DNA from: an uncultured Candidatus Saccharibacteria bacterium
Lineage (GTDB): Bacteria > Patescibacteriota > Saccharimonadia > Saccharimonadales > UBA10212
NCBI GenBank assembly: GCA_964460855.1
Contig: CAYWQH010000001.1
Location: forward strand, 123,868 to 187,867
Direction of reading: 5' to 3'
DNA: 64,000 bases
Below are positions 1 through 60,709 of the stretch, one piece after another (the first letter of the stretch is position 1; the number at the start of each line of letters is the position of its first letter). Below the pieces are notes generated by a model. It was given only the letters and a program-made list of their open reading frames with translations, was not told the DNA's origin and did not search any database. Made by a program: the position numbers and the translations under genes.

Positions 1-73
1 TTGCGCCGGAATTACGGGTATTTACGCCCGTAATTTCTCCTGTACTTTTAACTTGTAAATTATAACATATTTA

Positions 74-102
74 TAGACTTTTTTCAATACTTATGCTATA
101 GT
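74..102 (+). promoter_or_regulatory. Extended -10 promoter (TAGACT-N17-TATAGT, TG at -15/-14) placed 7 nt before the ATG at 110; implies a leaderless mRNA
   Basis: cttaTGcTATAGTttggccgATG read directly. There is no SD between the -10 box and the ATG. The same acttatgYTATARt motif recurs at 17166-17181 and 17522-17537. Confidence 0.45.
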
Positions 103-14227: not shown

Positions 14228-15835
14228 TTACTGTATTTTGACCGGTCGATAAACTATTCTTCGGATACGGTCGACCACCGGAATGGCTTCTTCCAGACCG
14301 AACAGCGATGAAATTCCCAGGTGCACCAGGAAGGTCGGCGCGACGATAAAGAATAGTTTAGGCGCTAAGGTTGAAAAGCCGCGGTCACCGGTATTTAACG
14401 GTACGATCGAGACCATAATATAGGCGGTTAACAGCGTGAAGCCGGTAACCGACATAATCTTCACCACGCCGTTCCAAAATTCTTTGTTAAAGAAGTGCCG
14501 GTCCCTATAAATTATTATGCCAACCAGGATTACTACTTCCGAAACCGCCACTATAGATTGGGCGATGGCCAGGCCGGCTATGCCATAACCATTCGGGCTG
14601 GGGCGCGACAAGTTAAATGCCAAAAAGATGTTGAGGGCAATGGCGAACAGCGAAACATACAGCGGAATCCGGGTGTTTTTATAAGCGTAAAAATAGCGCG
14701 ATATCAGGGTGTAGAGCGTCCGGAATATAATCGCGCCGGCCAAAAAGCCCAGCACAATGGCAATTTCGGCCGAGCCTTTTTTATAGATCAAACGGGCAAA
14801 GTAGCCGCGGGCAAAAAAGCTGACTACGGCAATCGGCATAATTATCCAAATCATGGCCCGCAGGATTTGCAGGAAGTCGCGGCGGAATAGGTCGGGCCGC
14901 TTTTGGGCCAGCCGGTCAATCAGCCGCGGGAAAGCGGCCGTCGAAATCGAGCTGCCCACCAGTAGGATGGGCGCGGTGTGCAAGATGTAGCCGTTTTCGT
15001 AATAGGTAATGTTACCGGTACCCAGAGCGCTGGCCCGGTTGGTTTCGACGATACTGTTAATCGAGTCAATGCCCTGGTCGATAGCCCGCGGCGGCAGCTG
15101 GCGCAAAATGCCGTGGAAGTCTTTGCTTTTCCACTTAATATGCGGGAAATACTTAAAGCCCAGGCCAAACAAGCCCAGGCAAACCACCAGCAGCTGCAGC
15201 AAAGCGCCTACCATGGCGCCAATGCCCAGCCCGATCAACCCGATATTATCCCGGAACACGTAAGCGCTGGCGATGATGCTCAAGTTGTAGATCAACGGGC
15301 TGATAGCAAAGAAAAAGAAGCGCCCGAAAGTTTGCTGGACGCTAGTCAGAATTCCGGAGATGGTGAAAAGCAGCGGGTTGAGGGCGATGAGCCGCATTAT
15401 TGTAGCGGCGTTATGGAGCTGTTGGGGGCTTAAATCCTTATTAATAATTAACTTAATAAGCGGCTCGGCAAAGATAATCAGGAAGATGCCGACGATTGCC
15501 ATGGCAATGCCCAGCAGGTTTAACAAGCTGGAGGTTAATTCCCAAACGGTTTTTTTATCGCCTTTCTCCAGCCGGTCGGCTAAGAACGGCATAAAAGCCA
15601 CGCCCAGGGCGCCGGCGGCAATCGTATAAAAGAAAAAGTCAGGGATTTTAAAGGCCGCAAAGTAGGCGTCGGTGCTGTTGGGCCCGATAGTATGGAAATT
15701 GGCGTTAATTATCGAGGTCCGCAAAAAACCCAGCAGCTGGCCAAATAAAGCCGCGCCAATCAGAAGTGCAGCGGCGTTGCTCAGCGGCATACGCCGGTTG
15801 GCGCGGCTAAGCCACTTATTCTTTACGCGGTCCAT
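14228..15835 (-). CDS. murJ: Lipid II flippase MurJ (MviN family)
   Basis: 535-aa polytopic MOP-family protein with MurJ-like N-terminal motifs (...DAYFAAFKIPDFFF...). Confidence 0.85.
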   Translation of the reverse strand: MDRVKNKWLSRANRRMPLSNAAALLIGAALFGQLLGFLRTSIINANFHTIGPNSTDAYFAAFKIPDFFFYTIAAGALGVAFMPFLADRLEKGDKKTVWELTSSLLNLLGIAMAIVGIFLIIFAEPLIKLIINKDLSPQQLHNAATIMRLIALNPLLFTISGILTSVQQTFGRFFFFAISPLIYNLSIIASAYVFRDNIGLIGLGIGAMVGALLQLLVVCLGLFGLGFKYFPHIKWKSKDFHGILRQLPPRAIDQGIDSINSIVETNRASALGTGNITYYENGYILHTAPILLVGSSISTAAFPRLIDRLAQKRPDLFRRDFLQILRAMIWIIMPIAVVSFFARGYFARLIYKKGSAEIAIVLGFLAGAIIFRTLYTLISRYFYAYKNTRIPLYVSLFAIALNIFLAFNLSRPSPNGYGIAGLAIAQSIVAVSEVVILVGIIIYRDRHFFNKEFWNGVVKIMSVTGFTLLTAYIMVSIVPLNTGDRGFSTLAPKLFFIVAPTFLVHLGISSLFGLEEAIPVVDRIRRIVYRPVKIQ

Positions 15836-15906
15836 ACAATAAAAAGCTTTTGGTTAAGCATGCTAGCTTAATTATAAAGACGCCACCAAGCTTTTGGTAG
15901 CCAATT

Positions 15907-16662
15907 CTAGGCGGCTTGCTGTTCGACCGGTTTTATCGAGATGACGTGGTCGACGCCAGGTTCGGTCCCATTTTTGTGGCGTTCTTCTGCCTTTTTAGCG
16001 AAGTTCATCCGGGAATTATTTTCTAACTGCTCAATATTTTTATAAACGTAAACGGCCCCTCCAAGTACCAGCGCGCCAACCGCCGCGCCAACGGTTCCGC
16101 GGGCTAATGAGTTGTCTACAACTTCAGAGCCAGTTTCTGTGCTAAAGCCAAGCGCTTCGCCAAAAAATACGCCAATACCTAAAGCTGCGATTTGCAGCCG
16201 TCCCATTAATCTCTTATATTTTTCACGTCCGATTGCTTCGTTAATTCCTTGGCGCAACCGCATATTCATATTGCCTTCGATAATATCGCTAAGTTCCATT
16301 AAGCTTTTATCAGGATTACTAGTGTGAAGCGGCGCCAGCACTTCAACAACATTGCCGGAAACTAGCGCAGGGCCGTTGTCGCGGGCGACAACATCCGGGC
16401 TTTCAATTAATGCCGGCAGGCTGGGAACCGGATTTACAAAAACTTCTTTGATCCTGTCGCTAGGCCTAATTGCTTCGTTGGCATTATAAACAGCAACTGC
16501 GAACTTTTCGTTATCAATCACAATTTTATGTTCTTCGTCGTTTATAAATAAGTCTGAATGCGGAAAATCTAAACTGGCCGTGGGCGCTAAAATTGGGGTT
16601 GTTGAGCGCTTTACAACCTTGTCCTTAATCTCTTGAAACTCGGTAAATCCTTCTGCTGACAT
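15907..16662 (-). CDS. Hypothetical protein with C-terminal TM helices
   Basis: The start was moved to the ATG at 16662 (SD GAAGAGGG). This is supported by the upstream promoter TTGAAT-N17-TATACT at 16690-16718. Confidence 0.5.
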   Translation of the reverse strand: MSAEGFTEFQEIKDKVVKRSTTPILAPTASLDFPHSDLFINDEEHKIVIDNEKFAVAVYNANEAIRPSDRIKEVFVNPVPSLPALIESPDVVARDNGPALVSGNVVEVLAPLHTSNPDKSLMELSDIIEGNMNMRLRQGINEAIGREKYKRLMGRLQIAALGIGVFFGEALGFSTETGSEVVDNSLARGTVGAAVGALVLGGAVYVYKNIEQLENNSRMNFAKKAEERHKNGTEPGVDHVISIKPVEQQAA

Positions 16663-16689
16663 AGTACCCTCTTCAATATTAATGGAATT

Positions 16690-16718
16690 AGTATAGTCCT
16701 CTGAAGTGCCCGATTCAA
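16690..16718 (-). promoter_or_regulatory. Promoter TTGAAT-N17-TATACT for 15907..16662
   Basis: Hexamers read on the minus strand with 17-nt spacing. Confidence 0.45.
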
Positions 16719-16735
16719 TCAATTGTGATTCTGAA

Positions 16736-16764
16736 TTGCCGCTTATGCACCGAGCTGTTATCAT
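16736..16764 (+). promoter_or_regulatory. Extended -10 promoter (TTGCCG-N17-TGtTATCAT) of the 85-aa cassette gene
   Basis: Hexamers, 17-nt spacing and the TG motif were read directly. Confidence 0.45.
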
Positions 16765-16817
16765 AAAAACTTCGCATTTTTTGCGTAGCGTTTGGCAAGA
16801 CAAACAACTGAAAGGGG

Positions 16818-17075
16818 GTGGCCGCCCTGGCTACCTACATTATTTCAGTCGGTGAAGAAGTGACCCTGGAATTCCACATCCACGACAACGACACGGCGAT
16901 CGACCATGTCACAGAGTTGGCGTCACTGTGGGAAAAACGCACTGAAACCTGGGGCAAGCTGTTCGCCGGCCGGAAGAAGTACCCGTTGATGCTGCTTCGC
17001 CGGGAAAGAGACCGGTCCTTCGAGCATGTGATCACATGCACGGTAAACCTCTCTGGCCCCGGCGACTACAACTAG
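16818..17075 (+). CDS. Hypothetical small protein (85 aa), GC3-rich cassette gene
   Basis: GTG start directly after the purine tract GAAAGGGG. Codon usage is GC3-biased. The ORF is bracketed by the 15-bp inverted repeat 16787-16801 / 17118-17132. Confidence 0.5.
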   Translation: MAALATYIISVGEEVTLEFHIHDNDTAIDHVTELASLWEKRTETWGKLFAGRKKYPLMLLRRERDRSFEHVITCTVNLSGPGDYN

Positions 17076-17081
17076 CGGCTT

Positions 17082-17137
17082 TGCGGGGCCGGGTCTTCGA
17101 ACCCGGCCCCGCAGCGCGTCTTGCCAAACGCTTTTTT
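17082..17137 (+). terminator. Tandem terminators: a 13-bp GC hairpin, then a short hairpin plus T6
   Basis: tgcggggccgggt-cttcga-acccggccccgca (17082-17113), followed by gcgt...acgc and TTTTTT (17132-17137). Confidence 0.65.
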
Positions 17138-17152
17138 CATTGGTCCATAAGA

Positions 17153-17181
17153 TTGCTACTTTATACTACTTATGTTATAAT
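17153..17181 (+). promoter_or_regulatory. Extended -10 promoter TTGCTA-N17-TGtTATAAT of the 76-aa cassette gene
   Basis: Near-consensus hexamers. 28/32 nt are identical to the promoter at 17508-17539. Confidence 0.6.
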
Positions 17182-17213
17182 ATTTTATTAGGCTACCCCA
17201 AAGGAGACGTCTG

Positions 17214-17444
17214 ATGGTAATGCAAACCTATCAGATCGACGACGGCCCGCTGTTCCAGCGGCCCAGCGAGTTTCTCGCCAAGGAGGTCTTCCGCCTCGCG
17301 GTGGAACACCGGCGCGACGAACTCAGCCAACTGCCGGACCCGCCGCGGACAACCCTGCTCACCCTCTACAGCTTCCACGAGCGTGGGCGCACGCAGATCG
17401 ACGACTACAAGATCGTCCTGCCAGGTGAGCCGGTAAAGGCGTAG
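17214..17444 (+). CDS. Hypothetical small protein (76 aa), GC3-rich cassette gene
   Basis: AAGGAG lies 7 nt before the ATG. About 64 of 76 codons end in G/C by hand inspection, and all Lys codons are AAG. Confidence 0.65.
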   Translation: MVMQTYQIDDGPLFQRPSEFLAKEVFRLAVEHRRDELSQLPDPPRTTLLTLYSFHERGRTQIDDYKIVLPGEPVKA

Positions 17445-17451
17445 CAATCCG

Positions 17452-17490
17452 GGGCCCCCTCCGCCACTTGGCGGACGGGGCCCTTCCCAT
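17452..17490 (+). terminator. 14-bp GC hairpin terminator
   Basis: gggccccctccgcc-actt-ggcggacggggccc, followed by ttcccattttt. Confidence 0.6.
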
Positions 17491-17508
17491 TTTTATGTGT
17501 CTATAGTA

Positions 17509-17537
17509 TTGCTATTTAATACTTCTTATGTTATAAT
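17509..17537 (+). promoter_or_regulatory. Extended -10 promoter TTGCTA-N17-TGtTATAAT of the 128-aa cassette gene
   Basis: Same module as 17153-17181. Confidence 0.6.
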
Positions 17538-17654
17538 AACTCTGATTTCACTTCGGTGGGGTCGTATTTTGACAGGGTTAAGCTTCTGCCGCGTCCAATG
17601 AGCGCATCTTAATAGATAAGGTGCACTGGTTGGACACGACAGAAAGGATCTACT

Positions 17655-18041
17655 ATGTCCAACGCTCAAGGCCAGCCCGTGACCTATTACGTGCAGGTCT
17701 ACGAGTTCTGCGAGCACCTGCACATGTCAGTAGTGCTGAAGGAAGCTCGGGGATTCGATTCCCTGCCCTTCCGCGACTACTTGAAGTGCGTCGTACCGGG
17801 TACTACGCTCAGCCATCATTTCACGGACCATGGCTTCCTCTCGATCGACATCGAGTGGCGCCAGGGGCTGAAGCTATCTGTTCGCGCGATCGAGTCAGTA
17901 CAAGGCGCGATCGACGACTTCTTCCGTGACAACGGCGGCGTGCGAGACCATCGCGCCGAGCGCATCGAAGCGCTGGAAGCGGCGATGCGGCCTCAGGAGC
18001 TGTGGCTCGTCGAGTGGCCGGAGTACGATCCGACCGTCTGA
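17655..18041 (+). CDS. Hypothetical protein (128 aa), GC3-rich cassette gene
   Basis: SD GAAAGGA lies 7 nt before the ATG. GC3-rich codons, with all Lys as AAG. A leader of about 110 nt precedes it. Confidence 0.65.
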   Translation: MSNAQGQPVTYYVQVYEFCEHLHMSVVLKEARGFDSLPFRDYLKCVVPGTTLSHHFTDHGFLSIDIEWRQGLKLSVRAIESVQGAIDDFFRDNGGVRDHRAERIEALEAAMRPQELWLVEWPEYDPTV

Positions 18042-18047
18042 CGTATA

Positions 18048-18079
18048 CGGCCGCCGGCCCCTTTGGGGGCTGGCGGCCG
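18048..18079 (+). terminator. 14-bp GC hairpin terminator
   Basis: cggccgccggcccc-tttg-ggggctggcggccg, 7 nt after the TGA stop. Confidence 0.55.
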
Positions 18080-18135
18080 CGCCTCACTTAACCCTGCCAA
18101 TCACATTTGTTATAAATCTTTTTAAAAGGACAAGC

Positions 18136-18165
18136 TTGCTTAATCCTAACTGCCCTTTATATTAA
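18136..18165 (+). promoter_or_regulatory. Promoter TTGCTT-N16/18-TATATT/TATTAA of the 167-aa gene; a second TGtTATAAA box lies at 18108-18116
   Basis: Hexamers read directly. Confidence 0.4.
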
Positions 18166-18184
18166 TTTACATAAAGGAGCGTTT

Positions 18185-18688
18185 ATGGAACGAGGACAGC
18201 ATCCTGAATATACTTTCAGAAGACACGAACATTTTGAATTCAATGATAAAAAAGTAGATAAGAAAAAAAGAAATTCTATTCAAAAGGCCGCAACAAAGTC
18301 TCACGATGATTTAATGGCCTACCGTAGCCAACTAAAAGAAATTACAAAAGAGCTGGAGAAGCAACTTGAGCATCTCCAAGGCAAAACGATTTCAGTGAAT
18401 AGCACAAGAGCAGTTTTACGTTATGGCGGCAACTATCGGCTGCTTACGATCTCAACTGATACAGTTGGTTCCACCAATGGAGTTTTGCTTGATTTAGCTT
18501 TATTTAATACTGCAGAATTACACCATCCAGACGATGAGGGTAGCTTTGAAAACGTATTCGAAATAGTCATGCGAATTCATACCAATCCGGACATAACAAG
18601 ACATAATCCGAACAATCTAAGCGTAGTTTATGTCCCGATCGACGACATCCAAGGCCCAATTACGTTAGTTAAAGACGGTAGTAGCTAG
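18185..18688 (+). CDS. Hypothetical protein (167 aa), AT-rich cassette gene
   Basis: AAGGAG lies 5 nt before the ATG. Arg is encoded mostly by AGA and Lys by AAA. One 60-nt line (18301) counts 23/60 G+C. No motif recognised. Confidence 0.6.
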   Translation: MERGQHPEYTFRRHEHFEFNDKKVDKKKRNSIQKAATKSHDDLMAYRSQLKEITKELEKQLEHLQGKTISVNSTRAVLRYGGNYRLLTISTDTVGSTNGVLLDLALFNTAELHHPDDEGSFENVFEIVMRIHTNPDITRHNPNNLSVVYVPIDDIQGPITLVKDGSS

Positions 18689-18763
18689 TCTAGAAAAGTG
18701 AGTACTATTTATAACGAAACCACTGCGAAGCGAGCCCAAGTTGGCGTTTATCCAGTAAAGCGA

Positions 18764-18938
18764 AATACATAAGCACGCAAGACTCTGAAAAACTGAAGGA
18801 GTAAGGCTTGTAAGAAAGTAGTGAAGCGAGGACTGTTTGAGCCACTGCTTATATAAACTTCTGCGAGTTCCACAGCTTCCGATTTTCGCACAAGTTTTAC
18901 GACTATCATGTTTTTCAGCTCTTGCGGGATTAGGTATT
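18764..18938. repeat. Long imperfect hairpin element E2 (175 nt), related to 9065-9253
   Basis: The arms 18764-18811 and 18890-18938 pair (aatac/gtatt, cgcaaga/tcttgcg, ctgaaaaac/gtttttcag, cttgt/acaag). The 5' arm matches the E1 5' arm at 19/27 positions (acata..cac.c.aagac...gaaaac). Confidence 0.55.
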
Positions 18939-18943
18939 GAGCG

Positions 18944-20053
18944 CTATTCCCATCGGAAAACGCGAAACGCAACCGCATAAATAACCACCATCCATATCGC
19001 GATCAACCCGATCTGCGGCCCCAGCTCAGTCAAATGCTTACCCTCAGTGGCTATCATTCTAATTCCATCAATAATCGGCGTCAGCGGCAGCCAGGCCGAC
19101 ACGTGCTGCAGCCATTCCGGCATGCTGTAGCGCGGAAAGAAAGTACCCGACAAAAACAGCATCGGAAAAACTATGATGTTGGCCAGCGGCGCCGCCTGGT
19201 TTTCGTTTTTGGCCCAACCGCCTATCGCCAAACCAATGCCAAAAATACATAGAATGCCGTAAATAATAAATAACATTAGCTCCAGGTAGTTGCCGACAAT
19301 CTTAAAGTCGAATAATACCGTGGCCACGGCCAGCATTATGCCGATGGCAAAGACACCGATTACTGAATTGGATATAACACTAGATAAGAAAAACTGCCAG
19401 ACTTTAAGCGGCGTAATATGCAAACGCCGCAAAATACCCTGCTTTTTCATTTCCGGGAAGTAATTGACCGGGCCGAAAATGCCCAGTCCGATTATAGAAA
19501 AACCGATTATCCCGGCCACGGTGTAATCCAGCCGGCTCAAACCTTTAGTGTTGGTAGACTCGGCCTTAACCGTAAACGGGGTTTCGACTTTTACTAATTT
19601 AGCATTTACGGCATCCAGCGATTGCTGGATAACAGACTGGATAGTCTGGGCTGCCTGGTAGTTATTTTCGTTATACAAAACCTGGACTTCGCCTTGCGGG
19701 TATTGGCCATTCTGGTTATTGCCGAATTCTGCCGGCAGTACGATTGTCGAGTCTATTTCGCTGCGGCTCATTTTTTGCTTGGCTTCGTCAATAGTTTTAA
19801 CGCTGTCGTCCAGTTTAAATAACGGATTTTTTTTGAGGCCGTCTTCGAATTGCTGGGCCGCCTGGGTGTTGCTTTGGTTAATTAAAGCCACGTGGAAAGA
19901 CACGCTGTTGCTCTTACTGAAACTGCCAAAAATAACCAGGAAAATCAGCGGGAAGGCTACCGTAAAGAATAATGCTACGCGGTCGCGGAAGTAGCGGCGC
20001 ACACTGACGCGGGCAAATGTCCGGATTGTAAACAAAGAGCCTTTGCGCTGCAT
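18944..20053 (-). CDS. ABC-2 type transporter permease
   Basis: 369 aa with an N-terminal TM helix, a large loop and five C-terminal TM helices. It lies directly downstream of the ABC ATPase. Confidence 0.8.
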   Translation of the reverse strand: MQRKGSLFTIRTFARVSVRRYFRDRVALFFTVAFPLIFLVIFGSFSKSNSVSFHVALINQSNTQAAQQFEDGLKKNPLFKLDDSVKTIDEAKQKMSRSEIDSTIVLPAEFGNNQNGQYPQGEVQVLYNENNYQAAQTIQSVIQQSLDAVNAKLVKVETPFTVKAESTNTKGLSRLDYTVAGIIGFSIIGLGIFGPVNYFPEMKKQGILRRLHITPLKVWQFFLSSVISNSVIGVFAIGIMLAVATVLFDFKIVGNYLELMLFIIYGILCIFGIGLAIGGWAKNENQAAPLANIIVFPMLFLSGTFFPRYSMPEWLQHVSAWLPLTPIIDGIRMIATEGKHLTELGPQIGLIAIWMVVIYAVAFRVFRWE

Positions 20054-56413: not shown

Positions 56414-59400
56414 CTAAGAAGAACCATAGGCTGACAGGTTGCCATCGTTATAGCCGGTACCGGTGGTCGTGTAGGTTGCTGGCAGCGATGTAAGATTTGT
56501 TTGGCTGCTAGTGTAGGCCTTATACGTGCTGCCGGTACTGTCGCGGAATTTAACCGTACCTCCGGTGCCCAACACCGCCATCCAGTATTTAGTGCCGGCG
56601 GCCAAAGGCGCCGGTGTTACCGTAATGGTGTTCCAGCTGTTGGCAACCGGCGCGCTTATCGAACCGCTGGCCATTAAACTGCCCGGCTTGCCGTTATTGT
56701 CGGAATAAATCCCAACACTCAGGTTAGTGGCGGTTGAGCCGCTGGCTATATAATAGCTCATTTTGCTGATTGTTCCGCTGGCAGCGGCAGTTGTTTGGAA
56801 TGTTTCGGCCTGCCCGCCGGTATCGCTATCGGCATGGGTTTGGACCGTTTGGCTTCCGATCAACACTTGCGAACCATTGTTTACCGTAACTGTAATCGTC
56901 GCCGAAGTAGTTTGCTTGCCCGAAGAGTCGGTGGCGACGGCAGTTAAGCTGTGGGTTCCGTTAGTGGCCGAAGTAGTTGCCCAGTTTACCTGGTACGGCG
57001 CGGTAGTATCTGCCGTACTGAGATTTGCCCCGTCAAGTTTAAACTGGACATTGGCTATGGCCACATCGTCGCTGGCATTGGCCGAAACATTTATCGAGCC
57101 GGATACTGTGGCGTTGTTGGCCGGTGCAGTTAAGTTGACTGTTGGCGGGCTTAAATCATTAAGCACATTCACGATTATCGAAGTATTTGCCGTATTGCCG
57201 GAAGTGTCGGTGGCGACGGCCGAGATGGTATGCGGGCCGTTGGAATAGGCTGTGCTGTCCCAGCTAATTTGATACGGAGTAGCCGTACAAACCGCCCCAT
57301 AACTCACGCCGTCAACCTGGAAATAAACCGTATCGACGGACACGTTGTCGGTGGCCGACGCAATTAACTGCACATTGGTACCGCTAACAGTAGCATTGGC
57401 GGCCGGGCTGGTTATGGTAACTGTTGGCGGTGTGGTGTCCGGTTTGGGGGCATTGGATACAGTTACTGAAACCGAAGAACTGGATGTGTTGCCAATGGCG
57501 TCGCGGGCCACGGCAGTAATGGTATGAGTGCCATTGCTTGCAGTTGCCGTATCCCAATTGTAGGTATACGGCGAGGCGGTAATTTCAGCTCCCAAGTTGG
57601 CGCCGTCGATCTTGAACTGCACGCCGGCAATACCGTTGGTGTCGCTGGTATCGGCCGAAATAGCAGTAACGCCCGAAGCGGTTGAGCCGTCAGACGGAGC
57701 AGTAATTGAAACTCCCGGGTTAGTGTTGTCGGTGGTAAATGTCACCGCCGTGGATGTGGCCGTGTTGCCGGCCCCGTCTTTGGCGATGGCCGTGACAGTA
57801 TGCTGGCCGTCGCCCAGGGCCAGGGAATTCCAGCTGAAGTTATATGGCGCACTTACCAGCGCCGGGCCGGCATTTACGCCATCAACTTGGAACTGGACAC
57901 TGGCAACACCGATATTATCGTTGGCCACGGCCGAAAAAGTCAGATTGCCGTGCTGCAGCGAACCGGCCGCTGGGTTGGTAACCGATACGTTCGGCGCGGT
58001 AGTATCCGGCGCCGGCGCGCCTATGGCGACGGCTTTATACATAACCCGGGCGTGGTGGTGGGCGCAGTCCGAATCATCTTGTTCGTCAAAATAAACCACG
58101 TCTATGACGTTGGGGTTATTGTCGCGCGACGGGTCAAAACGGATTGATGCCGAACCGTCGGTTCCGGGCTCGCAGGTGTCGCCGGACGACGGCGCCGTTT
58201 TACTTTGCGGGTCGAGGGTGGCGTAAGCCCCCCAACTGGCGCCTAAGCCGCCAAGCTGGTACTGGTAGCCGAATTGGACGTTTATATCATGGCCCAGGAA
58301 AACGAAATTAGCATTAGAGGATGAAGTATAGTTTTGCGGCGTATGGGCGAACCAGGTGCCATTCGGGTTGCTGGCGCCGCCGCTGCCGCCGGGCGGCGTG
58401 TTGTCGGTCCATAAACCATTAGCGTCGCGGTAGCGCATCCTGACATAGTCGGTGCCGTTGGGCGTACCGTCCATAAATACTACAATTGGCCGGCCAGAAG
58501 TATCAACCGTTAAGCCAGGTCCTTGGTCGCTATCGCCGTTATTAAGCACATTGGAATCGCCCAAAGTAACCTGTTCCGGAATGCTCCAGCTACCGCCGGT
58601 ATATTTCGAGTAATCTATTTCCGAATGCGTAGCCAAGGAGTTATTCATCCAGGCCAGGTTAAAGCTGCCGTCCAAGGCGGTTACCATTGAGGGATGCATG
58701 ATGTTGGTGCCAATGGCAATGGAGGCCGGGGTCGTCCAGGAACCGCCGGCGTGGCTGGTAAATTGCAGTGAATTAGCACTGCCGCTGGTAGCGTAAACGA
58801 TTAACGGCTGGTCATTAGAATCTAAACTTAAAGCAACCTGCCCGGTCCTCGGCCAGCTGATACCGTCAGTTACGCTGGCCCCGCTGCCTACCGCTGTGCG
58901 GCCGCCCCAGGTATCGGTTAGGGTTGAGTAAGTCTGGTAATAAACCGTGCCGGTTAAGCCTTCCACATATGCCATATGGATGGTGCCCGCCCGGTCTAAC
59001 CGGCTGTCCGGGCTTTGCATCATGGCCGTAGCGTTATAGGTACAATCGGTGGTGCTGGTTGAAGTTGGCCGGTGCGACGCATCCTGCTCGGTAAAAGCAT
59101 TCGGAGCGTAAGGGTTGCCCGGCTGCGAGCCGCTACCCTTCCAGATATGGATAGTGCCGTTGCCGCCGCCCTGGCAGGCATTGTCGTCGGAGGCGATTAC
59201 ATAAACCACATTATTGGCAGTGCGGATTACCTGGCGGTCGGAAGCGTCAATAAAACCGTTGCCGACCGCTACGCCCTGGGTAGAAGCATCCGGCGACGGC
59301 GTTGGCGAACTGACATTAAATGTATTGCTAGTTGTAACGTTAATCGGGATGGAGGTGGCCGTGTTGCCCGAAGTGTCGCGGGCCACGGCCGTCAAAATAT

Positions 59401-60709
59401 GGCTGCCGTTTATTACAGAAGAAGTGTCCCAGTTTATAGCGTAGGGCGCGGTGGTGTCTTCGTTTTGGAGGTTTACGCCGTCCAGCTTGAACTGCACGCC
59501 GGCTACGGCGGCATTGTCGCTGGCCGAGGCGTTAACCGAAACCACGCCGGTCAGGGCCGAACCGTCGGCCGGCGCCGTAATATTGACGCTTGGCGCGGTG
59601 GTGTCGCAGGCCGCGGTTTGGGCGCTTAACGTTGCCTGGTTGGAATGGTTGTTGGCGGCATCGTAGGCGTCTACACCCAGCGAGTATGACGTGCCGCAAG
59701 TTAAGCCACTAATCGTGCCAGTAAGTCCGGTAAACGTGCCGGCCGCCGAAGTTCCGTTATATAAGGTATAGCCAGTTACGGCCGTGTCGTCGGTGGAGGC
59801 CGTCCAGGAAGTTGAAATGGTAGTTGCCGTGTTGCCGGTAACCGCGAAGTTCGTAGGGGCAGTTGGCGGCGTTATGTCCGGCGCGGTATTGAGCTGGGCT
59901 TTATAAGTTACGACCGTGCCGGCGTACGGGCTGGCGGCGCTGGACAGCGCCGGGGCAGTTTGGTTGCCGATGGCGCTGACCAATTTATACTGCTGCCATT
60001 GCTTTTTATATACCGTGCCTAAGTTGGATGTCAGCTGGGTCGGGAAAGCCGTAAAGCCGCTGCCGGCCGTGAACGTTTCGTTGGTGGAGCCATCGCCAAA
60101 TGAGCCGATTACCAATTCGGTGTCCTGGGTGGTGGCGGCAGTGGTGCCGGTAGCCAGCGCGGCTGTATTGCCCGTGGCGGTCGCTTTTTGGTCGACGCGG
60201 TTAGTGGCGGCAATACCGTTCCATTCGGTGGCCAGCGCCAGGCGCATGCTGGCCGCGGCCGAATAGGTAACTCTAATAGTGTCGCCAGCGGCCAAGCCGT
60301 TAGTCATATAACCGGATAAAACCGTTGTTATAGTGCCGTTGCTGGAATTGGCGCTGATACTGTCCTGCGTATAAATATTGCCTTTGGAGTCGGCAACCGA
60401 TGCTGCCGACACTCCGGAATAGTTGTTGCCAGCAAAAATTATAACCGTGTTGCCCTGGGCGACGCCGGCGGCCGGCACGGTAAGTACTAAAGTATTGGCG
60501 GCCGTGTAAGATTGCGCCGTTGCCGAGGCTACTTCTTTAACGAAGCTGATGTTGCCAGCGGCATTGGTATCTTTCTTTTGAATTAAAAATACGGCGGCTA
60601 GCAGCACGCAGATAGTAATTGTAATGGCCAGCCTAAGATATTTTGTTAAGGCCCTGTTAGCTGTTAAATTATCCAGGAAATTCCGAAGTCCAGTACCGAA
60701 GCGCATCAA
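56414..60709 (-). CDS. Giant surface protein (1431 aa): anchor, lectin-like domain, FN3, five Ig-like repeats, BNR/propeller-like region
   Basis: N-terminal TM anchor and an FN3-like segment (aa 280-367). Ig-like repeats carry the recurring motif ...V.F..DG..L....T.APY...W.T....NG.H..TAVA.D..GN..... Confidence 0.85.
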   Translation of the reverse strand: MMRFGTGLRNFLDNLTANRALTKYLRLAITITICVLLAAVFLIQKKDTNAAGNISFVKEVASATAQSYTAANTLVLTVPAAGVAQGNTVIIFAGNNYSGVSAASVADSKGNIYTQDSISANSSNGTITTVLSGYMTNGLAAGDTIRVTYSAAASMRLALATEWNGIAATNRVDQKATATGNTAALATGTTAATTQDTELVIGSFGDGSTNETFTAGSGFTAFPTQLTSNLGTVYKKQWQQYKLVSAIGNQTAPALSSAASPYAGTVVTYKAQLNTAPDITPPTAPTNFAVTGNTATTISTSWTASTDDTAVTGYTLYNGTSAAGTFTGLTGTISGLTCGTSYSLGVDAYDAANNHSNQATLSAQTAACDTTAPSVNITAPADGSALTGVVSVNASASDNAAVAGVQFKLDGVNLQNEDTTAPYAINWDTSSVINGSHILTAVARDTSGNTATSIPINVTTSNTFNVSSPTPSPDASTQGVAVGNGFIDASDRQVIRTANNVVYVIASDDNACQGGGNGTIHIWKGSGSQPGNPYAPNAFTEQDASHRPTSTSTTDCTYNATAMMQSPDSRLDRAGTIHMAYVEGLTGTVYYQTYSTLTDTWGGRTAVGSGASVTDGISWPRTGQVALSLDSNDQPLIVYATSGSANSLQFTSHAGGSWTTPASIAIGTNIMHPSMVTALDGSFNLAWMNNSLATHSEIDYSKYTGGSWSIPEQVTLGDSNVLNNGDSDQGPGLTVDTSGRPIVVFMDGTPNGTDYVRMRYRDANGLWTDNTPPGGSGGASNPNGTWFAHTPQNYTSSSNANFVFLGHDINVQFGYQYQLGGLGASWGAYATLDPQSKTAPSSGDTCEPGTDGSASIRFDPSRDNNPNVIDVVYFDEQDDSDCAHHHARVMYKAVAIGAPAPDTTAPNVSVTNPAAGSLQHGNLTFSAVANDNIGVASVQFQVDGVNAGPALVSAPYNFSWNSLALGDGQHTVTAIAKDGAGNTATSTAVTFTTDNTNPGVSITAPSDGSTASGVTAISADTSDTNGIAGVQFKIDGANLGAEITASPYTYNWDTATASNGTHTITAVARDAIGNTSSSSVSVTVSNAPKPDTTPPTVTITSPAANATVSGTNVQLIASATDNVSVDTVYFQVDGVSYGAVCTATPYQISWDSTAYSNGPHTISAVATDTSGNTANTSIIVNVLNDLSPPTVNLTAPANNATVSGSINVSANASDDVAIANVQFKLDGANLSTADTTAPYQVNWATTSATNGTHSLTAVATDSSGKQTTSATITVTVNNGSQVLIGSQTVQTHADSDTGGQAETFQTTAAASGTISKMSYYIASGSTATNLSVGIYSDNNGKPGSLMASGSISAPVANSWNTITVTPAPLAAGTKYWMAVLGTGGTVKFRDSTGSTYKAYTSSQTNLTSLPATYTTTGTGYNDGNLSAYGSS
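56876..58009 (-). repeat. Four tandem Ig-like coding repeats (about 93-95 aa each) inside the giant gene; a fifth lies at 59324-59605
   Basis: Repeat boundaries were derived by counting residues 901-1278 and 369-462 of the ORF. Confidence 0.7.

Follow-up and report, generated by a model that had tools for sequence, protein, structure and literature searches.

Two neighbouring and mutually dissimilar genes of a Saccharibacteria genome are preceded by promoter segments that probably descend from one sequence: the evidence is best read as an old case of promoter reuse among accessory genes that stand in an array and are transcribed separately. The two segments, named P1 and P2, would then be paralogous copies of a single promoter segment. 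The genes in question, p76 and p128, are predicted to encode proteins of 76 and 128 aa and lie in the window, i.e., the whole 64-kb stretch of DNA that was analyzed and to which all coordinates refer. The two copies of the promoter module are located as follows.

17134..17182, + strand: promoter module copy 1 (P1), with a T-tract, -35 element TTGCTA at 17153-17158, 17-nt spacer and extended -10 element TGtTATAAT at 17173-17181
17490..17538, + strand: promoter module copy 2 (P2), with a T-tract, -35 element TTGCTA at 17509-17514, 17-nt spacer and extended -10 element TGtTATAAT at 17529-17537

The similarity had first been described in an initial annotation of this DNA, which counted 28 identical positions between the 32-mers at 17152-17183 and 17508-17539. 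The recount gave the same 28/32. Further similarity upstream of the 32-mers, also mentioned there, is present as well, but it extends over about 18 nt rather than the proposed 8 nt or so. The full in-register similarity is gapless, with an offset of 356 nt, and comprises 40 of 49 positions (82%). Its two borders are sharp: it sets in within the T-tract that belongs to the terminator ahead and ends one base past the -10 element. On the 3′ side of this element, local alignment scores no higher than with shuffled sequences (p = 0.98). The terminator hairpins upstream of P1 and P2 show no significant likeness, and an extension of the homology into the terminators through a 9-nt gap, as drawn in a MAFFT alignment, was rejected (local alignment against shuffles, p = 0.24).

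P1 and P2 have the same architecture, TTGCTA / 17-nt spacer / TGtTATAAT, and judging by these motifs they are textbook extended -10 promoters of the sigma-70 type, in agreement with their earlier description as strong extended -10 promoters. On both strands of the 64 kb (128 kb in total), the perfect element TGnTATAAT occurs at three sites, namely in P1, in P2 and at 59-67 on the reverse strand. The observation that the direct repeats bracket the 76-aa ORF together with its terminator also holds, a self-contained promoter–ORF–terminator unit being found between them.

Whether the module is simply the general promoter consensus had been raised at the outset as an objection, and the comparison with other promoters speaks against it. 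The runner-up matches within the window reach only 21/32 and 28/49, and a degenerate 31-mer that tolerates 3 mismatches hits P1 and P2 only, with 0 matches expected (100 shuffles). In 1.8 Mb of other loci, nothing reaches 31/49 unless it was pre-selected for the core. As a control, metagenomic sequences with the identical 19-base core TTGCTA-N10-CTTATGTTATAAT were collected (68 matches, 42 of them non-redundant), and the comparison was made at the 30 positions outside this fixed core. P1 and P2, identical at all 19 core positions, share 21 of the remaining 30, whereas the 42 unrelated same-core promoters have 9.0±2.8 in common, and none of their 861 pairs exceeds 17 (binomial p = 1.2e-4). Even strong promoters of related Saccharibacteria that are apparently orthologous share only 29-33 of 49 positions among themselves. 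Because of this excess of non-core matches over the same-core controls, and because the apparently orthologous promoters are less alike, P1 and P2 are taken to share an origin; on these comparisons they are homologous, representing neither the general consensus nor a case of convergence. In L141 and L153, both Saccharibacteria contigs, the core is located upstream of a conserved gene, which marks the core of P1 and P2 as a native Saccharibacteria type.

An independent origin of P1 and P2, followed by selection towards the same strong consensus or towards a site that a common regulator or alternative sigma factor binds, is an alternative that is considered unlikely. It would account for the fact that all differences lie outside the core. 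Native promoters with the same core are also present in other Saccharibacteria and in many other taxa, and ATTG and ATGnTATAAT are common to other strong promoters of the clade. The site of a shared regulator could partly maintain the conservation of the spacer and the upstream part, rather than descent alone, but it would not account for matches along the whole 49 nt, including the T-tract. Likewise, identical-core and apparently orthologous promoters fall short of the agreement between P1 and P2, and no other promoter of the window approaches it. If this alternative were nevertheless true, the P1/P2 pair would mark a small regulon.

Further copies were also looked for. A pattern of the module with 25 fixed bases gave 0 matches in the JGI metagenomes, and a third copy was found neither there nor in the 64-kb window or the 80 related loci. 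Looser patterns, with 19 fixed bases for metagenomes and 18 for viral contigs, brought up nothing but generic promoters.

The two copies are part of a larger insertion. LepA of the window is 81-82% identical to LepA of metagenome-assembled genomes (MAGs) of uncultured Saccharibacteria (Saccharimonadales) and forms a singleton cluster at 90% identity; since the identity is only 81-82%, the window belongs to a member of this group that has no close sequenced relative. In the syntenic relatives L016, L022 and L031, an ABC-transporter permease is found 69-174 nt from murJ. The corresponding interval of the window measures 3.1 kb (15836-18943) and contains five ORFs without detected homologue, none of which is present in the 80 related loci. 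The region had been suggested to be inserted DNA, and the absence of the 3.1-kb interval from the three relatives bears this out. It was, however, the 356-bp unit between the repeats that had been proposed as the insertion, whereas synteny points to the whole island. A misassembly of the island is excluded by L001, which was assembled independently from a different run and covers the stretch from murJ to the permease at 100% identity. Its genes are the following.

15907..16662, - strand: p251, orphan ORF of 251 aa whose C-terminal part is hydrophobic, the leftmost gene of the island; GC3 0.44; called in L001 and L002
16818..17075, + strand: p85, candidate ORF of 85 aa with GTG start, GC-rich; codon-position GC.56/.40/.74
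17214..17444, + strand: p76, orphan ORF of 76 aa; Shine-Dalgarno AAAGGAG at 17200-17206, 7 nt upstream; codon-position GC.69/.36/.84
17655..18041, + strand: p128, orphan ORF of 128 aa; codon-position GC.66/.38/.78; Shine-Dalgarno present
18185..18688, + strand: p167, AT-rich ORF of 167 aa, the right-hand gene of the island; GC 0.39, GC3 0.35

The composition of the island falls into three classes (46%, 57-63% and 39% GC). The central ORFs p85, p76 and p128 have 57-63% GC and GC3 of 0.74-0.84, compared with 48-52% GC and GC3 of 0.59-0.66 for lepA, murJ and the ABC genes, while the outer ORFs p251 and p167 are AT-richer than the genome. All three central ORFs show coding-type codon-position GC, with GC2 of 0.36-0.40 beside the high GC3. 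On composition and Shine-Dalgarno sequence, p76 and p128 are predicted to be coding. The same two features are the basis for p85, whose coding status is uncertain: the gene calls of L001 and L002 do not include it, and it is absent from the protein collection.

None of the five island proteins gave a match above threshold in Pfam, PHROGs, NCBIfam or PADLOC. The searches of large protein collections covered p76, p128 and p251. For p76, no homologue was found among 5.8e9 clustered proteins (word-indexed search) or among 1.84e9 representative proteins (full HMMER search), the self match being the only one in each case; p128 and p251 likewise matched only themselves among the 5.8e9 proteins in the word-indexed search. 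p167 forms a singleton cluster, has family matches below threshold only and is absent from the 80 related loci, and p85 had no match in phages and plasmids (tblastn), viral contigs (scan) or PDB sequences. The AF2 single-sequence models are of low confidence, that of p76 being mostly helical (pLDDT 60) and that of p128 showing a bb-a-bb-a topology (pLDDT 60, pTM 0.57). A Foldseek search of the PDB with the p128 model gave nothing below E = 0.009, with a TM of about 0.35. Among themselves, p76, p128 and p85 show no similarity (BLASTP of p76 against p128, E = 16), and the 5′ UTRs of p76 and p128 are not alignable. At the nucleotide level, 16700-18200 had no match in phage and plasmid records by blastn, and a search of 16000-19000 against Rfam with E up to 1 returned a chance miRNA match only.

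Besides the genes and the module copies, the island contains a further promoter-like site, several stable hairpins, a long inverted repeat and a structured leader.

16736..16764, + strand: P0, promoter-like TTGCCG-17-TGtTATCAT upstream of the 85-aa ORF
16787..16801, + strand: 5′ arm of an inverted repeat with 15 of 15 nt paired, AGCGTTTGGCAAGAC, within the 5′ UTR predicted for p85; duplex -25.8 kcal/mol
17078..17115, + strand: T0, GC-rich hairpin after p85, -36.3 kcal/mol, followed by the 3′ arm of the inverted repeat and then by U6
17118..17132, + strand: 3′ arm of this inverted repeat, GTCTTGCCAAACGCT, immediately followed by the T-tract (U6) that opens module copy 1
17451..17494, + strand: T1, canonical intrinsic terminator of p76, with a hairpin at 17451-17484 followed by TTCCCATTTTT; -31.6 kcal/mol
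17545..17654, + strand: structured 110-nt leader of p128, -42.8 kcal/mol, z = -3.9
18040..18085, + strand: T2, GC-rich hairpin after p128, -37.0 kcal/mol, without an adjacent U-tract

The resulting layout consists of P0–p85–T0, P1–p76–T1 and P2–110-nt structured leader–p128–T2, with p167 following T2. The T1 hairpin is present in the minimum free energy (MFE) fold of the whole transcript, and its U-tract doubles as the first part of the P2 module. T0, in which 18 nt separate the hairpin from the U-tract, is not a canonical terminator, and neither is T2; clear insulation is for this reason expected only between p76 and p128, and read-through from T2 into p167 is possible on this structure.

P0 was considered as a further copy of the module and rejected, as it resembles P1 and P2 in the core hexamers only (local alignment, p = 0.2-0.46). 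A weak promoter-like site on the 3′ side of T2, TTAACC-17-TGtTATAAA, shows a marginal likeness to the -10 part of P1 (p = 0.027).

In the MFE fold of 16771-17140, the closing stem is made up by the perfect 15-nt inverted repeat, which encloses the Shine-Dalgarno sequence, p85 and the T0 hairpin. The 64 kb contain just three distant inverted repeats of at least 14 nt, this one included. It could serve in 5′/3′ UTR pairing, form an RNase III stem or provide the arms of an invertible segment. An inverted repeat with 13/14 matches (17569-17582 / 18087-18100) surrounds p128 and its hairpin; it is not significant alone, and its layout parallels that of the p85 repeat. The p128 leader is predicted to fold into a 5′ hairpin with a UUCG loop, a U-run and a long hairpin that overlaps the Shine-Dalgarno sequence. 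It matches no Rfam family; a role as attenuator or translational control element is possible from the modelled fold.

The initial annotation had interpreted the repeats in terms of a mobile gene cassette, i.e., a 356-bp unit of p76 and its terminator that was inserted into, or is shuffled between, promoter modules. Several features are in keeping with this proposal: the direct repeats flank a complete promoter–ORF–terminator unit, this unit is part of DNA of deviant GC content that is inserted relative to relatives, inverted repeats enclose both neighbouring ORFs, and contigs of two Logan assemblies end at 17089/17091, and of one at 18094, near the boundaries of the unit. However, insertion with duplication of a promoter-containing target would leave repeats of another kind, since 49 nt with 18% divergence are unlike a target-site duplication. 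Moreover, no integrase or other recombinase, no transposase and no phage gene lies within about 8 kb of the island, whose neighbours are housekeeping genes, and a search for att-like repeats at the island ends found none. The module is known from its two copies only, across the window, the 80 related loci and the metagenome scan. Variants without the 356-bp unit, which the proposal would predict, were not encountered either: all five recorded contigs that carry the 128-aa gene also carry the 76-aa gene, at 100% identity. The contig breaks are explained by fragmentary coverage, as other contigs break inside ordinary genes. Shuffling between modules is conceivable, and recombination between them could possibly delete or move the p76 unit; with no third copy, recombinase or att-like end at hand, the mobile cassette as a whole is considered quite improbable.

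Regarding the contig ends themselves, L003 and L004, which stem from independent runs, start at window positions 17091 and 17089, inside the T0 hairpin, and L004 ends at 18094, just after T2. Contig ends at T0 and T2 could reflect coverage that drops where the hairpins are GC-rich, or a branched assembly graph.

A broader version of the cassette idea would see the terminator tail and promoter module as the portable expression adaptor of an undescribed Saccharibacteria cassette system. GC-rich foreign genes would be captured serially, each with a copy of the module at the junction and with a 5′/3′ inverted repeat (16787/17118 and 17569/18087) for recombination, inversion or RNA processing, and the array would be reshuffled between the modules. 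Such a system is regarded as a very doubtful conjecture.

Less probable still is a tandem duplication of the whole unit of terminator, promoter and gene, after which the coding part diverged or was replaced: both units do have the same head-to-tail layout, but p76 and p128, the terminator hairpins and the 5′ UTRs are without detectable similarity, the units differ in length (356 versus about 600 nt), and a non-coding promoter is not expected to outlast coding sequence. Hardly credible, finally, is the view that the GC-rich segments are not protein genes but structured non-coding RNAs, each transcribed from its own promoter, which could draw on the strong promoters and the terminators of these GC-rich islands, on z-scores of -4.8 and -5.8 for the folds and on ORFs without homologues, but is contradicted by the coding-sequence pattern of GC3 and GC2, by Shine-Dalgarno sequences at the correct spacing and by the lack of any Rfam family even at E up to 1, and whose z-scores take in the terminator hairpins and the 15-bp inverted repeat.

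The proposed reuse of one promoter by two genes was compared with several known systems. Gene-cassette arrays of integrons resemble the island in that small, unrelated and often orphan ORFs are lined up head to tail at one site and in one orientation. Integron cassettes are promoterless, are bounded by attC sites and lie beside an intI integrase with attI and a common Pc promoter. In the island, by contrast, every ORF has a promoter-like site of its own in front of it, and what recurs is a direct repeat instead of an imperfect palindrome. A scan for recombinase domains, limited to the island and its neighbours, found none and hence no intI. A transposon or insertion sequence is not indicated either, as the repeats measure 49 nt at an identity of 82%, no terminal inverted repeats are found just inside them and no transposase is present.

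Miniature repeats that bear promoters, such as Correia elements, ERIC and REPIN sequences, possess terminal inverted repeats, generate target duplications and occur in tens to hundreds of copies. They share with the module the character of a short repeated intergenic sequence with a promoter, which is predicted here and functional there. The module, on the other hand, has no inverted-repeat ends, and two copies are known from the 64 kb, with no others in the 80 related loci or the metagenome scan.

The units are built like phage morons in several respects. Morons are defined by their own promoter, their own terminator and a deviant GC content (PMC3594210; Juhala/Hendrix). Like morons, the island genes are extra genes that are absent from related genomes. 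Such an arrangement of promoter and terminator around a single gene is predicted for P1–p76–T1, while the hairpin of p128 has no U-tract. The composition deviates as well (57-63% GC against 48-52% in the neighbours), and absence from the same site in relatives applies to the whole 3.1-kb island, not to the single unit. A location in a phage or prophage is not indicated, with no PHROG match and no occurrence in phage records or viral contigs. Unlike morons, the genes have murJ/lepA on one side and an ABC transporter on the other, and they form a row of several units, two of which share a promoter.

A parallel in terms of the repeated sequence is provided by putative mobile promoters. Thousands of highly similar promoter pairs have been described upstream of unrelated genes (PMC3575422). 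The survey of Matus-Garcia, Nijveen & van Passel (2012; PMC3575422) considered the region between -150 and -50, counted from the start codon, and set minimum values of 80% for identity and 50 nt for length; the mean identity of the pairs was 92%. Like P1 and P2, these are similar upstream sequences in front of unrelated coding sequences, mostly in pairs and without a known mobile element. The genes downstream of P1 and P2 are non-paralogous, as in the survey. With 82% identity over 49 nt, P1 and P2 fall one base short of 50; their similarity includes the -10 and lies partly outside the frame from -150 to -50. Furthermore, they are adjacent (356 nt apart), whereas the pairs of putative mobile promoters are dispersed. 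The feature is read as an instance of a known phenomenon, with promoters that were duplicated or reused among orphan genes arrayed in the manner of morons.

From these elements, the favoured reading of old promoter reuse can be put in more concrete terms. RNA polymerase with the primary sigma factor would recognize each module and start transcription about 7 nt past the -10, so that P1 would drive p76 from about 17189 and P2 would drive p128 from about 17545. The products would be separate monocistronic mRNAs, probably strongly expressed to judge from the motifs, and the shared promoter sequence would confer similar transcriptional behaviour on two unrelated genes. These genes would be arranged head to tail in the 3.1-kb lineage-specific insertion with GC-rich hairpins between them, and the U-tract of the terminator before each promoter would form the upstream end of the promoter module. 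The additional copy would most likely have arisen when a gene of the array received an existing local promoter, that is, by reuse or capture through illegitimate or short-homology recombination. The duplication appears to be old, because the core is intact at 19/19 positions yet 9 of the 30 others have drifted, which corresponds to a Jukes-Cantor distance of about 0.38. We infer promoter activity and the transcript ends, as well as the direction and mechanism of the duplication, from these features.

P1 and P2 represent two candidate strong promoters native to Saccharibacteria, with matching terminators, and are possible parts for epibiont genetics. They would also exemplify how an episymbiont with a reduced genome wires newly acquired orphan genes by local promoter reuse. 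Should the module be found at other accessory genes of the genome, it could serve as a marker for such genes.

Some further observations concern promoters elsewhere and the neighbouring sequence. The only other perfect extended -10 promoter of the window (39-87, - strand, TTGAAA-17-TGtTATAAT; see also L161 1849-1992) is located upstream of a RimK-like ATP-grasp gene. Comparable promoters occur at a similar distance from lepA in L015, L018, L022, L024 and L028, which suggests a conserved strong promoter of the clade with the putative consensus ATTGAAA...ATGnTATAAT. In two metagenome contigs with the same core as P1 and P2 (L102 1383-1420 and L153 536-575, the latter from Saccharibacteria), the start codon follows the -10 hexamer by 3-6 nt, a short gap that implies putative leaderless mRNAs.

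Contig 29 of GCA_964585885.1 (L002), 2.75 kb in length, equals window 15773-18526 except for one SNP at 16349, while the lepA contig of this bin (contig 13, L029) encodes a LepA that is only 74% identical to that of the window. By these sequences, the bin would either mix two Saccharibacteria populations or contain a mis-binned short contig. At a distance from the island, an ORF of 1431 aa (56414-60709, - strand) in a GC-rich stretch contains internal repeats spaced by about 280-294 nt (family D1) and probably encodes a large repeat-domain surface protein.
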